Virus record (IMG/VR): IMGVR_UViG_2526164661_000010
Span: 1-4,828 of that record
Strand: one strand, 5' to 3'
Origin: a virus
Taxonomy: Duplodnaviria > Heunggongvirae > Uroviricota > Caudoviricetes
DNA length: 4,828 nt
Both the position numbers and the translations under genes were made by a program. Positions 2 through 4,828 of the stretch are shown in pieces. Below the pieces are notes generated by a model. It was given only the letters and a program-made list of their open reading frames with translations, ran no database searches and was not told the DNA's origin. How positions within the stretch are numbered: the first letter of the stretch is position 1; the number at the start of each line of letters is the position of its first letter.

Positions 2-1273
2 ACCCAAATCGCAAGCACGGCTTATGTGATGGCCGCGATTGCCGCCCTTGTAGATTCGTCACCTGATGCACTGAACACGCTGAACGAGCTGGCGGCGGCG
101 CTGGGAAACGACCCGAATTTTGCGACCACCATGACTAACGCGCTTGCGGGTAAGCAACCGAAAGATGCCACCCTGACGGCGCTGGCCGGGCTTGCTACTG
201 CGGCAGACAGGTTTCCGTATTTTACGGGGAATGATGTCGCCAGCCTGGCAACCCTGACAAAAGTCGGGCGGGATATTCTTGCGAAATCGACCGTTGCCGC
301 TGTTATCGAATACCTCGGTTTACAGGAAACGGTAAATCAGGCTTCTGGAGCATTACAGAAAAACCAGAACGGCGCAGATATTCCGGGAAAAGATACCTTC
401 ACCAAAAATATTGGGGCCTGCCGCGCATATGGCGCATGGCTGGATATTGGTGGCGATAATCAGGTCTGGACAACCGCGCAATTTATTTCGTGGCTGGAGA
501 GTCAGGGAGCATTTAACCATCCTTACTGGATGTGCAAAGGCTCATGGGCTTATGCAAATAATAAGGTCATTACAGATACAGGTTGCGGAGATATTTGTCT
601 TGCAGGTGCTGTGGTGGAAGTTATTGGCACTCGCGGCGCAATGACCATACGCGTTACCACGCCGAGTACGTCCAGCGGCGGCGGAATTACTAACGCTCAA
701 TTCACTTATATTAATCATGGTGATGCTTATGCTCCTGGCTGGCGACGGGACTACAACACGAAAAATCAACAACCTGCATTTGCTTTAGGGCAAACAGGAA
801 GCACTGTCGGAAATGATAAAGCTGTTGGCTGGAACTGGAATAGCGGGGTCTATAACGCAAGCATTGGTGGCGCAACAGCATTAATCCTCCACTTCAATAT
901 GAATACGGGGAGTTGCCCTGCCGTACAGTTCCGCGTGAATTACAGGAATGGCGGTATTTTTTATCGTTCAGCGCGTGATGGTTATGGATTTGAAGCTGAC
1001 TGGTCAGAGTTTTACACCACAACCCGCAAACCCTCTGCGGGGGATGTTGGTGCATATACTCAGGCAGAATGTAACTCAAGGTTTATTACAGGTATTCGCC
1101 TTGGCGGTCTGTCATCTGTTCAGACATGGAATGGTCCCGGCTGGTCTGACAGGTCAGGTTATGTCGTTACGGGTTCAGTTAACGGAAACCGTGATGCATT
1201 AATTGATACAACTCAGGCAAGGCCAATTCAGTATTGCATTAATGGAACGTGGTATAACGCGGGGAGTATTTAA
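2..1273 (+). CDS. Phage tail fibre protein, 5'-truncated at window edge: conserved shaft segment fused to variable C-terminal tip (Sv, currently in the expressed orientation)
   Basis: Reading frame is open from nt 2 with no stop before the TAA at 1271-1273, so the GTG/ATG at 26 in the ORF track is internal. Translation contains the segment [63 protein letters not shown], which I recognise as the conserved region of Mu S / P1 S / P2 H-type fibres. The 26-bp crossover site sits in-frame at 303-328. Confidence 0.9.
303..328 (+). repeat. Invertase crossover site, left (gix/cix/pix-like, 26 bp): ttatcgaatacctcggtttacaggaa
   Basis: Two mismatches to the Mu gix sequence TTATCCAAAACCTCGGTTTACAGGAA as I recall it. 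It is present as an inverted copy at 3537-3562 and lies inside the fibre ORF at the constant/variable junction. Confidence 0.85.
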
Positions 1274-1275
1274 TC

Positions 1276-1809
1276 ATGATGCACTTAAAAAACATTACTG
1301 CTGGCAACCCTAAAACAAAAGAGCAATACCAGCTAACGAAACAATTTAACATCAGATGGCTTTATACAGAGGATGGGAAAAACTGGTATGAGGAACAAAA
1401 GAACTTTCAGCCTGATACGTTGAAAATGGTCTATGACCATAACGGCGTTATTATTTGTATTGAAAAGGATGTTTCGGCAATTAATCCGGAAGGCGCAAGC
1501 GTCGTTGAATTACCTGATATTACAGCAAATCGCCGTGCTGACATTTCGGGTAAATGGATGTTCAAAGATGGCGTAGTGGTAAAGCGAACTTATACCGGGG
1601 AAGAGCAGAGGCAGCAGGCGGAAAATGAAAAGCAAAGCCTGTTGCAACTTGCCAGAGATAAAACCCAGTTATGGGACTCACAGCTACGGCTGGGCATCAT
1701 TTCCGACGAGAATAAACAAAAATTAACCGAGTGGATGCTCTATGCGCAGAAAGTCGAATCCACAGACACCTCCAGCCTGCCAGTAACATTTCCCGAACAA
1801 CCTGAATGA
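1276..1809 (+). CDS. tfa: Tail fibre assembly protein (Tfa chaperone) paired with the expressed fibre tip
   Basis: ATG at 1276 sits 2 nt after the fibre stop, with GGGGAG at 1261-1266 as RBS. The 177-aa product begins [18 protein letters not shown] and contains [12 protein letters not shown], typical of e14 TfaE / Mu U-like assembly proteins. Stop TGA at 1807-1809. Confidence 0.9.
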
Positions 1810-1812
1810 GAC

Positions 1813-1839
1813 AAGGCCCGATAGCGGGCCTTAATTTTT
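1813..1839 (+). terminator. Hairpin terminator between the convergent tfa genes
   Basis: Stem aaggcccg (1813-1820), loop atag, stem cgggcctt (1825-1832), followed by aattttt. It is flanked by the inverted final codons of the two tfa genes (cctgaat at 1801-1807 and attcagg at 1841-1847). Confidence 0.6.
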
Positions 1840-2365
1840 ATTCAGGCTTTTGTGGCCATTCAGGATTTGCCGTATCCACACGGCTTACCATAACACTGTA
1901 GCGTTCCCATGACTCCAGTCGTGCGCGTTCCTCATCCGTCGCCATATTCAGCCTGACGGCGCGTTCCAGTGGCTGAATAACGCTTTCCGCTTCGGAAAGT
2001 AACGTGGCCTTTTGTGATTCGGCCTGTTGTTGCTGTTCGTCTGCCGTATAAATCCGTTTAACCACAGCTCCATCCTTAAACATCCACTTCCCTGAATCAT
2101 CGGCCCGACGATTGGCTGTTATATCGGGGACTTCAACAACGCTAAAGCCTTCAGGATTAAGTGTGGAGGCATCTTTAGTGATGGCTACAATAATATTATT
2201 TTCATCGTAAACAATCTTTATTGTGTCTGGCTGAAAATTCTTTACCTCTTCATACCAGTTCTTCCCGTCTTCAGAGTAAAGCCAGATAACTCCGTGCTTC
2301 TTTGTTAACTCATACTGCTCCGGTGTTTTAGCATTACCAGCTTTTATGTTCTTTAAGTGCATCAC
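1838..2365 (-). CDS. tfa: Tail fibre assembly protein, alternative copy (tfa') paired with the silent fibre tip
   Basis: The 175-aa product begins [47 protein letters not shown], resembling e14 TfaE as I recall it. The N-terminal two thirds are similar to the + strand Tfa and the C-terminus is divergent. Start is GTG at 2365 or ATG at 2362. Confidence 0.9.
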
Positions 2366-2366
2366 A

Positions 2367-3536
2367 TTAAACGCTCGCTACATTATACCAGGTGCCATTT
2401 ATATACTTTTGAACAGGTCTGTAATAAACGCCAGCTATATTATCGGCAGAGTGGGACCCTGTATCCTGAACATTTATACCAGACAGTACATGACCTGAAG
2501 GGCACTGGAAATTCCATGTTTGCCAGTTGTTCACTCCATAATATTGCTGTGAACCAAGTCTGATATCTCTCACATAGCGGGAATCAATGTTACCCCAGTT
2601 GCTTGGTTGTATCTGACCGTTTACAGCAAATATCACTGAGTTATCTGTATTTCGCTGACTATAGAAATGCCAGCCTGAATCATCACCAAGCTCTGCAACA
2701 GTTGGTCTTGACGAATTTCCCCACAAGTTAAATGATGCATTACGGGCAGAGTTATTTGCACTTGCAAGAGTGAATAGCTTACTTTCCCCAGCCTGAATAC
2801 CCTTTAATGATATTGCTGAACCATTTCTAAAGCGGAATACATGCACACCATTAGCATAAGCATCCAGCACCCCATCACCATTTTGTTTAAACCCGGTATC
2901 GTTATCTCCTAAAACAATCGAGTTACCGCCAAGAGCACTGGATGTTCCGATGCCCAGTGCACCATTCAATTGACCGCCAGATAATGACAACGCCCCAACC
3001 TCAGCAGCAGTCGGTTTAATGTGCGAACTGTAAATTACATATACAGTTCCATCTGTCAGACCTGTTGGTTTATTCGCTGTATAAGATGGTGATGTATGAA
3101 TCGTTACGCTGGCGTTACTGGTATAATCCCACTGAATATTAACACCTGTGGCGTAATTACCTATTTCAACATAAACATCATAGGTATTACCGGATGTATT
3201 CACCCATGCAAAATTAGTAAATCCAACCGATGTCCGTCGCCATAATGCACCAGTAATACCTTTTGGATTCCCATTTCCGGCACGCAGAACCAGCTCAGAG
3301 ATGCCTGCTTGATGCGAGGAGCCAACGTTATACCCTGCACCACCAATCAGGCTTATGTAAACCACGGAACTGGCCTGTGGCATGGTTACAGTTGCCAGTT
3401 TGAACCATCCAGCACCACCACTAAAAGACATGGTTGTTGAATTTGTTGTGCCGATATTACGCAGGAATAGTTTTTTATCGGGAATATCTGCGCCGTTCTG
3501 GTTTTTCTGTAATGCACCAGAAGCCTGATTTACCGT
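2367..3536 (-). CDS. Alternative tail fibre C-terminal variable segment (Sv'), start-less; expressed only after inversion fuses it to the constant fibre region
   Basis: The minus-strand frame is open from the right crossover site through to TAA (reverse complement of 2367-2369). Reading from the site it translates [20 protein letters not shown], identical to the + strand fibre after the left site, then diverges. The ATG at 3431 given by the ORF track is an internal Met, not a true start. Confidence 0.8.
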
Positions 3537-3562
3537 TTCCTGTAAACCGAGGTTTTAGATAA
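3537..3562 (-). repeat. Invertase crossover site, right (inverted copy): reverse complement ttatctaaaacctcggtttacaggaa
   Basis: One mismatch to the Mu gix sequence as I recall it and 24 of 26 identical to the left site, in inverted orientation, 55 nt upstream of the invertase start. Confidence 0.85.
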
Positions 3563-3616
3563 TGGCCGTTTCTGGCCTGCATGGCATGATTTGCGCTTTT
3601 GGACGGGAGATTCAGT

Positions 3617-4207
3617 GTGCTGATTGGCTATGTAAGGGTATCAACAAATGACCAGAATACAGACCTGCAACGAAACGCTCTTGTTTGTGCAGGATGTGAA
3701 CAAATATTTGAAGATAAATTAAGCGGGACAAAGACTGACCGACCGGGATTAAAACGCGCTTTAAAGCGCCTTCAACAAGGTGACACGCTGGTTGTCTGGA
3801 AACTGGATCGCCTCGGGCGAAGCATGAAACATCTGATTTCTCTCGTCGGGGAACTACGGGAGCGAGGGATTAATTTTCGTAGTCTGACCGACAGCATAGA
3901 TACATCTTCTCCAATGGGGCGTTTTTTCTTCCACGTGATGGGTGCCCTGGCTGAAATGGAACGTGAATTAATTGTTGAACGTACACTGGCCGGACTGGCG
4001 GCAGCGCGCGCACGGGGGCGCACAGGCGGACGTCGACCGAAGCTGACAAAAGAACAGCATGAGCAAATAGCAAGGCTGATTAAAAACGGTCACGACAGAA
4101 AACAACTGGCAATAATTTACAGCATTGGTATATCGACAATTTATCGTTACCACCCCGCAGGAGAATCAAGTGGAACAATTGAGAAGAGTAAACAAAATAA
4201 CCGCTAA
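3617..4207 (+). CDS. pin: Site-specific DNA invertase, serine recombinase of the Gin/Pin/Cin/Hin family
   Basis: From the GTG at 3617 the translation reads (V)LIGYVRVSTNDQNTDLQRNALVCAGCEQIFEDKLSGTKTDRPGLKRALKRLQQGDTLVVWKLDRLGRSMKHLISLVGELRERGINFRSLTDSIDTSSPMGRFFFHVMGALAEMERELIVERT..., near-identical over the catalytic domain to Gin/Pin as I recall them. Catalytic Ser codon at 3641-3643, C-terminal HTH, RBS GGGAGA at 3605-3610. The TTG at 3599 in the ORF track is probably not the real start. The symbol is a family-level guess; gin/cin/pin naming depends on the host element. Confidence 0.9.
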   Translation: MLIGYVRVSTNDQNTDLQRNALVCAGCEQIFEDKLSGTKTDRPGLKRALKRLQQGDTLVVWKLDRLGRSMKHLISLVGELRERGINFRSLTDSIDTSSPMGRFFFHVMGALAEMERELIVERTLAGLAAARARGRTGGRRPKLTKEQHEQIARLIKNGHDRKQLAIIYSIGISTIYRYHPAGESSGTIEKSKQNNR

Positions 4208-4227
4208 TCTGGCCATTAGCGGTTTTT
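4199..4227. terminator. Bidirectional rho-independent terminator between the convergent invertase and tail genes
   Basis: Stem ccgctaat (4201-4208), loop ctggcc, stem attagcgg (4215-4222), then TTTTT (4223-4227) on the + strand. The reverse complement is followed by TTATTTTGTT on the minus strand. The stem overlaps the invertase stop codon. Confidence 0.7.
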
Positions 4228-4235
4228 GTGTTAAA

Positions 4236-4724
4236 TCAGAACAGCCCTTTAACGGAGCTGGCCGCGCTGTTAAGGGATGATGTGACCTTATCTTTGAAGC
4301 CGGACAGCATATCGCTGAACGATGAGGATTGCAGGCGCTCCCGCAAATCCTCATCACAGCGTTCAAGGGTCAGTGAAAATTCTATTTTTTTCGCCTTACC
4401 GTAGCGATCAAATTCAGAGCGGGTCGTATTCGTTCCGGTCAGGACATACATGCCGTAAATCTGCCCGACACCATCAATCAGAGGCCAGGGGCGTCCTGTA
4501 TATGCCTGCGTGGTCAGCAGCGACAGCGACACTTCGCCACCTGTAATTTCAGGATAAAGCACACCGGAAAGCACGATGCGATCATCACCTGCACCGATAT
4601 ACTGCCAGCTTGCTGAACGGTTAACGCGTTCATTTTTCACATGCCGCCAGCTTTTGTTTTGCTGTAACTGCTGATGCGGCAGCGTGCGCAGCTCAAAAAC
4701 AAACATGCCGTAGATCATCATCAT
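4236..4724 (-). CDS. Phage tail protein, P2 gpU-like
   Basis: About 162 aa, MMMIYGMFVFELRTLPHQ...SGVLYPEITGG...GRPWPLIDGVGQIYGMYV..., which matches my recollection of the P2 gpU family (size, MMM start, LYPE.TGG and WPL.DG..IYGMYV motifs). RBS GAGGAG lies 8 nt upstream of the ATG at 4724; the ORF track starts at the in-frame ATG at 4730, only 2 nt from the RBS. Product assignment is from memory, not a search. Confidence 0.7.
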   Translation of the reverse strand: MMMIYGMFVFELRTLPHQQLQQNKSWRHVKNERVNRSASWQYIGAGDDRIVLSGVLYPEITGGEVSLSLLTTQAYTGRPWPLIDGVGQIYGMYVLTGTNTTRSEFDRYGKAKKIEFSLTLERCDEDLRERLQSSSFSDMLSGFKDKVTSSLNSAASSVKGLF

Positions 4725-4736
4725 GACCATGACTCC

Positions 4737-4828
4737 TCAATCTTTATCGTAAAAACTGCCACGTCCGGCACGGGCGCGCCGTTCCATTTCTGCCCTGACC
4801 ATTTCACCGACCAGTTTCGCCAGTTCGC
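4737..4828 (-). CDS. 3' end of the upstream tail gene, partial; possibly tape measure (P2 gpT-like by position)
   Basis: The minus-strand frame is open from the window edge to TGA (reverse complement of 4737-4739), translating ...ELAKLVGEMVRAEMERRARAGRGSFYDKD*. The stop overlaps the RBS of the gpU-like gene (TGAGGAG), suggesting translational coupling. Identity is inferred from gene order only. Confidence 0.4.
   Translation of the reverse strand, partial: ELAKLVGEMVRAEMERRARAGRGSFYDKD

Follow-up and report, generated by a model that had tools for sequence, protein, structure and literature searches.

The right end of a 4,828-nt stretch of caudoviral DNA, called the window below at its full length, raises the question of why P2-type tail genes converge with a DNA invertase gene. 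The initial annotation of this junction placed a gpU-like gene and the end of a putative tape-measure gene on the strand opposite to that of the fibre and invertase genes, and gave for P2 the order in which the genes T and U are followed by D on the same strand as the fibre genes. Three explanations were considered there: a recombinational join of a P2-like tail module with a Mu/e14-style fibre-inversion module, a gene order other than that of P2, and a prophage remnant. The opposite strands (invertase on plus, gpU on minus) and the stated order were both confirmed, the latter against the P2 genome. The second explanation proved to be correct: in region 4199-4828 the late tail operon (FI-FII-E-E'-T-U) of a P88-like prophage (Peduoviridae, Xuanwuvirus type) very probably reaches its 3' end.

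The window is identical in sequence to a whole draft contig of 4,828 bp, AIGT01000019.1 (assembly GCA_000250075.2), and the following features were assigned to it.

26-1273, plus strand: C-terminal part of a tail-fibre gene
303-391: left inverted repeat of the fibre segment, with a gix-like crossover 26-mer at about 301-326
1276-1809, plus strand: fibre-assembly gene
1838-2365, minus strand: second assembly gene
2367-3431, minus strand: alternative fibre tip
3474-3562: right inverted repeat of the fibre segment, with a gix-like site at 3539-3564
3617-4207, plus strand: Gin/Pin-type serine invertase with Resolvase and HTH_7 domains, called at 3617-4207 on the source contig
4199-4224, both strands: predicted bidirectional intrinsic-terminator hairpin, from pattern and folding (z about -4)
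4236-4730, minus strand: gpU-family tail protein, last gene of the FI-FII-E-E'-T-U operon
4737-4828, minus strand: 3' end of the tape-measure gene T, cut by the contig end at 4828

All ORFs of the window are intact. Both contig ends cut genes, a fibre gene on the left and the tape-measure gene on the right, and presumably lie at repeats common to other prophages. Since the window is a complete draft contig, the absence of gpD from it marks an assembly boundary, and since both ends are assembly breaks, the missing gpD and the missing rest of the tail operon carry no conclusion. Overlapping ORFs of 51-74 aa on both strands in 4166-4546 were set aside as spurious, being inside or antisense to gpU and uncalled on the source contig. 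An Rfam scan (E <= 1) detected no RNA element in 4199-4828; its single match, which was sub-threshold, was IS009 at 1866-2061 (21 bits against a gathering score of 117).

The minus-strand gene that had been described as gpU-like is a full-length member of the Pfam family Phage_P2_GpU (PF06995; E 1.5e-38, 131.5 bits against a cut-off of 27.5, profile positions 1-120 of 120). Its ORF, 4236-4730, encodes 164 aa, or 162 aa from the RefSeq-style start at 4724, and the product is 46% identical to gpU of P2 and identical at 163 of 164 positions (99%) to gp44 of P88. A match to the R-type pyocin protein PA0626, "Ripcord" (PDB 6u5b_h), was also obtained (E 9.3e-5). The gene is located directly after the tape-measure gene, since only 6 nt separate the end of the gpT coding sequence from the start of gpU. 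The tape-measure identity proposed for the fragment 4737-4828 was likewise borne out: after the stop codon at 4737-4739 on the minus strand is excluded, the last 29 codons (4740-4826) give 29 aa identical to the C-terminus of P88 gpT. A frame read from 4828 is open yet wrong, and it is the frame 4826-4737 that matches P88 gpT. As first stated, no gene is present 3' of gpU on its own strand within the window. In relatives, namely P88 and a metagenome scaffold described below, the full contractile-tail cluster is present around gpU.

In the genome of Escherichia phage P88 (NC_026014), H-G-like fibre genes on the plus strand are followed by the invertible segment, the invertase on the plus strand, U, T, E', E, FII and FI on the minus strand, and gpD on the plus strand, with ogr beyond it. 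The same order is found in phage 520873 (L001), in a prophage of E. coli O169:H41 beside ihfA (L002), and in a 66-kb metagenome scaffold (L068), which has the full tail set with gpD and ogr and is 97.9-99.7% identical to the window over aligned segments spanning the whole window. The part of the order visible in the window, a fibre operon converging on U and T, matches that of these P88-like phages. In P2, the genes FI-FII-E-E'-T-U-D-ogr are co-oriented with H-G, and the Z/fun gene is in the slot between G and FI. Comparison of the two gene orders indicates that one inversion of the FI-U block would account for the difference between P2 and P88. FI-U is inverted and gpD is detached in P88, in SEN4, in Kp4860-2 and in 33 Enterobacterales prophages. 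In the P88 lineage, the whole FI-U block has been turned round relative to P2 and therefore reads towards the baseplate and fibre operon (V-W-J-I-H-G). The FI-U operon would end after gpU at an intrinsic terminator working in both directions; gpD is situated beyond FI, on the other strand and divergent from it.

Several of these relatives have peculiarities of their own. Because IS100 interrupts the tail-sheath gene in the record of phage 520873 (L001, 17839-23269) and its tape-measure gene is split, this "phage" is a decayed prophage. In the O169:H41 prophage (L002, 31138-34256), a GapS6a-family gene and a gene for a 930-aa hypothetical protein are located between gpD and ogr, an interval that looks like another cargo insertion site, and the annotation gives a shortened gpD. 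A 226-kb contig labelled Vagococcus sp. WN89Y (L006; NZ_JBQPOM010000071.1) also has a complete P88-type tail region, in which gpU is 96% identical to that of the window; the assembly is most likely mislabelled or contaminated with enterobacterial DNA.

Decay of this kind in 520873 and in the O169:H41 prophage, together with the absence of gpD from the window, would fit the explanation that the window is a prophage remnant from which gpD and the rest of the tail operon have been lost. However, the window ends are assembly breaks of a short draft contig, its ORFs are intact, its gpU differs at one residue from that of the viable P88, and the scaffold L068, a close relative of the same prophage type, holds the complete set including gpD. 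The same architecture is present in P88, a plaque-forming temperate phage of the genus Xuanwuvirus, family Peduoviridae (PMC5285337; PMC6456863). The proposal of a remnant is thus unsupported, and we regard it as very improbable.

The generality of the inverted order was surveyed by scanning one genome per species with gpU and typing the loci by tblastn with FI, FII, T, U, D, ogr, I, J and the invertase as queries. Thirty-eight loci were inverted, with FI to U reading towards oppositely oriented fibre genes and gpD pointing away from FI, and 11 were of P2 type, with FI to U and D on one strand; gpU was at least 53% identical to that of the window in all of the former and at most 51% identical in all of the latter. 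The inverted loci belong to Salmonella, Serratia, Enterobacter, Kosakonia, Pantoea, Klebsiella, Citrobacter, Edwardsiella, Providencia, Morganella, Photorhabdus, Xenorhabdus and others, and include phages SEN4 and Kp4860-2. The P2 order was found in P2, SopEPhi, 613R3, Klebsiella ST15-OXA48phi14.1, Idiomarina, Acinetobacter, Chitinimonas and Halomonas. All 38 inverted loci showed a single arrangement of the FI-U block with respect to D and the fibre genes. In a neighbor-joining tree of concatenated FI, FII, U and D (1,152 columns), which was a simple, midpoint-rooted one without support values, all 35 inverted loci included formed one clade. An invertase adjoins gpU in only nine species-level loci, and is convergent with U in every case. 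Because relatives having no invertase show the same convergence and an invertase also occurs with the P2 order, the convergent orientation is a property of the lineage and not a product of the invertase module.

The stop codons at the junction are separated by a gap of 28 nt (4208-4235; the gpU stop codon is at 4236-4238), rather than by the 29 nt first reported. The terminator that the invertase and gpU were said to share corresponds to the predicted hairpin at 4199-4224, which has T-rich tails on both strands, a 10-bp stem, a 6-nt loop and the arms AACCGCTAAT-loop-ATTAGCGGTT. Its folding energies on the two strands are -16.7 and -16.8 kcal/mol (z = -4.0 and -3.9), which were equalled by 0 and 1 of 200 shuffles, respectively; a consensus terminator scan is weak by itself (9 sites versus 4.9 +/- 2.0 in shuffles). 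The stop codon TAA of the invertase (4205-4207) sits within the left arm. In the window a C-terminal extension of the invertase reads into the terminator; the invertase of P88 likewise enters the hairpin, and those of L001 and L002 end just before it.

The same hairpin is present in P88, L001, L002 and L006, and also in an E. coli relative without the invertase (L064). Since L064 keeps the hairpin in this state, the hairpin is part of the P2-like backbone. In most loci of the inverted order a strong hairpin follows the gpU stop at a distance of no more than about 25 nt. P2-order loci continue directly into gpD. The hairpin would terminate the FI-U transcript and, from the other side, the invertase transcript, and would in this manner limit antisense read-through between the two units.

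Two E. coli prophages of the same backbone delimit the slot between the fibre genes and U. L064 has no cargo, its gpU being 120 nt after the fibre-assembly gene, and its homology to the window begins at 4195. L063 has a gene for serine acetyltransferase (4278-4850) and a different hairpin, and its homology to the window begins at 4230. Some P88-like prophages of E. coli have a serine acetyltransferase gene in this slot instead of the invertase cassette, and that of L063 may be a lysogenic-conversion gene. By these alignments, the cargo is joined to the backbone at about 4187-4199 or at 4230-4231. The invertase module is optional cargo in this slot. Variable in its cargo, the fibre/U interval corresponds in position, on the fibre side, to the Z/fun slot of P2, and that of the window is filled by an invertible fibre cassette resembling the Mu G segment and by a Gin-type invertase whose reading frame enters the backbone terminator. 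A published study of a P2 hotspot concerns a hotspot other than the fibre/U slot (PMC9122126).

Of 5,426 complete E. coli genomes, 1,406 have the U/T end (4100-4828) and 625 have the invertase-terminator-U join (261-nt probe, at least 80% covered). In many others the match to the join probe breaks at window position 4230-4231. These junction genes are routinely annotated by RefSeq.

The inverted repeats of the fibre segment, 303-391 and 3474-3562, are 89 nt long and 93% complementary. In L068 the segment 303-3562 is flipped (9028-12287) at 99.7% identity with both flanks in the same orientation, and the fibre switch operates in nature. The part of the segment shared with P88 (303-2411, 93.5% identity) is also inverted relative to the window. 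The alternative fibre tip at about 2411-3481 (ORF 2367-3431, minus strand) is a variable receptor-binding end; it is absent from P88 and partly shared with other relatives, of which L002 lacks 2594-2829. At the center of the segment, between the convergent fibre-assembly genes, a second, strong terminator-like hairpin was noticed at 1813-1832 (8 bp with 6 GC, then a T-run). A search for further gix-like sites (up to 7 mismatches in 26) in the window, the whole P88 genome and L068 found none besides the two that flank the fibre segment.

A domain search of the invertase gave Resolvase with E 2.3e-50 and HTH_7 with E 4e-13. The mechanically called ORF starts at TTG 3599; the true start is likely GTG 3617, giving 196 aa. 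The protein is 85% identical overall to Gin of the Mu-like Shigella phage SfMu, with a nearly identical catalytic domain and a diverged HTH domain. DNA homology to SfMu, at 91-93% identity, extends over 296-2587 and 3522-4005. It breaks off near 4005, within the invertase gene, whose 5' two-thirds it takes in at about 91% identity to SfMu gin. The invertase gene is itself a mosaic.

This homology bears on the proposal of a join, according to which T and U acquired their convergent orientation when a Mu/e14-type fibre-inversion module recently recombined with a P2-like tail module. As to the cassette, the proposal stands: the G segment and the 5' two-thirds of the invertase are of SfMu type, at 91-93% DNA identity up to the vicinity of 4005, and gpU and T are of P2 type. 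As to the cause of the convergence, it fails. The fibre genes converge on gpU without an invertase in SEN4, L063, L064 and most of the 33 species-level loci, and the hairpin is kept in L064. Conversely, the invertase of 613R3 and a putative invertase fragment of SopEPhi occur together with the P2 order, and the inverted order defines a deep clade in which gpU identity goes down to 53%. Such a recent origin of the orientation is, in our judgement, extremely unlikely. The possibility that the FI-U block is a large segment flipped by the phage invertase, as a second switch or its fossil, is practically negligible and was ruled out, because, although an invertase gene lies at one end of the inverted block, the only two gix-like sites in the window and the whole of P88 both flank the fibre segment, and therefore give no sign of the invertase flipping FI-U, most inverted-order genomes have no invertase, and all 38 typed inverted loci are in one state.

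Under the preferred reading, that of an FI-U block inverted in the P88 lineage, the promoters of the tail operon would be outside the window. The FI-D spacer of 157-250 nt contains a conserved TTGT...ACAA dyad, similar to the activator sites of P2 late promoters, at about 85-100 nt from the FI start codon and, in P88, at about 69 nt from the gpD start. FI-D spacers of the relatives (L003, 33175-33333; L005-L042) have the dyad plus the motif CACGCGCGCG, and these may be common Ogr-type late promoters. The strict pattern TGT-N12-ACA was found in only some FI-D spacers, that of P88 being TGT-N12-AGA, and its use as a test for activator sites was dropped, as it misses the annotated sites of P2 itself too. 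The FI-U operon would be transcribed late from a P_F-like promoter upstream of FI, and divergent late promoters of the Ogr type within the FI-D spacer would serve FI and D. A promoter of its own would be needed for gpD.

A wider reading that joins these points is possible, though we hold it as somewhat short of probable: a single ancient FI-U inversion would have changed the wiring of late regulation throughout a large clade of P2-like phages in Enterobacterales, making gpD a unit of its own and the junction a preferred place for cargo. gpD and FI would be served by one dyad-symmetric Ogr-type site, as in the P_P/P_O pair of P2, and the convergent fibre/U junction with its backbone terminator would be a preferred recombination point for invertase cassettes and the acetyltransferase. 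In the literature searched, no explicit description of regulatory rewiring by such an ancient inversion was found.

The architecture itself is already known from sequenced viable phages and hundreds of annotated genomes. Because the FI-U inversion is not discussed in the text of the P88 and SEN4 papers (keyword search of both), "known" rests here on deposited annotated genomes and maps. The junction is real but ordinary, and is neither an anomalous mosaic nor evidence of prophage decay. Its relevance is chiefly to correct annotation. A widespread lineage related to P2 has this architecture as its norm: the U/T end is found in about a quarter of complete E. coli genomes, and the exact invertase-U join in about 11%. 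The P2 gene order is not universal in Peduoviridae, and the orientation of FI-U marks the clade cleanly. Phage cargo genes may be sought in the fibre/U slot.

Among known systems, P88 has an identical gene order, a gpU differing at one of 164 residues, an identical T C-terminus, the same hairpin, and 97.5% DNA identity to the window over 3481-4828. It differs in having no counterpart of the alternative fibre tip and in having the invertible segment the opposite way round. The ICTV genus threshold is about 70% nucleotide identity over the genome. SEN4 of Salmonella (Senquatrovirus) and Kp4860-2 of Klebsiella (Reginaelenavirus) share with the window lineage the inverted FI-U block, gpD divergent from FI, and a GC-rich hairpin directly 3' of gpU, and their gpU proteins are 53% and 62% identical to that of the window, respectively. 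The fibre operon of SEN4 is annotated as converging on gpU, and for Kp4860-2, which is unannotated, the comparison covers the FI-U/gpD side. Unlike the window, SEN4 has neither an invertase nor an invertible segment.

The genes FI, FII, E/E', T, U and D all have homologues in P2, where Z/fun occupies a cargo slot next to the fibre-assembly gene G, on its far side, and the late operons are controlled through Ogr-type sites. The geometry of the FI-D dyad recalls the single annotated activator site between the divergent promoters P_P and P_O of P2. The difference is that the F operon of P2 runs in the same direction as H-G and that D comes directly after U, the stop and start codons overlapping by one base at 22791.

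The fibre switch resembles the G segment with Gin of Mu, being closest to SfMu, and the C segment with Cin of P1: genes of the S-U and U'-S' type are located between inverted repeats with gix-like sites, a serine invertase adjoins the segment, and natural inversion is seen, as in L068. The cassette of the window differs from both in being set in a P2-type genome and in an invertase whose HTH domain and C-terminus diverge from Gin, and it differs from Mu in that the P2-backbone terminator and gpU, not com/mom, come after the invertase. Escherichia phage vB_EcoM-613R3 has a fibre-inversion cassette with an invertase in the G-FI slot, and SopEPhi of Salmonella has a putative invertase fragment in the same slot. 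In these two phages, however, the P2 order is kept, and the next gene is FI on the same strand, with U followed by D.
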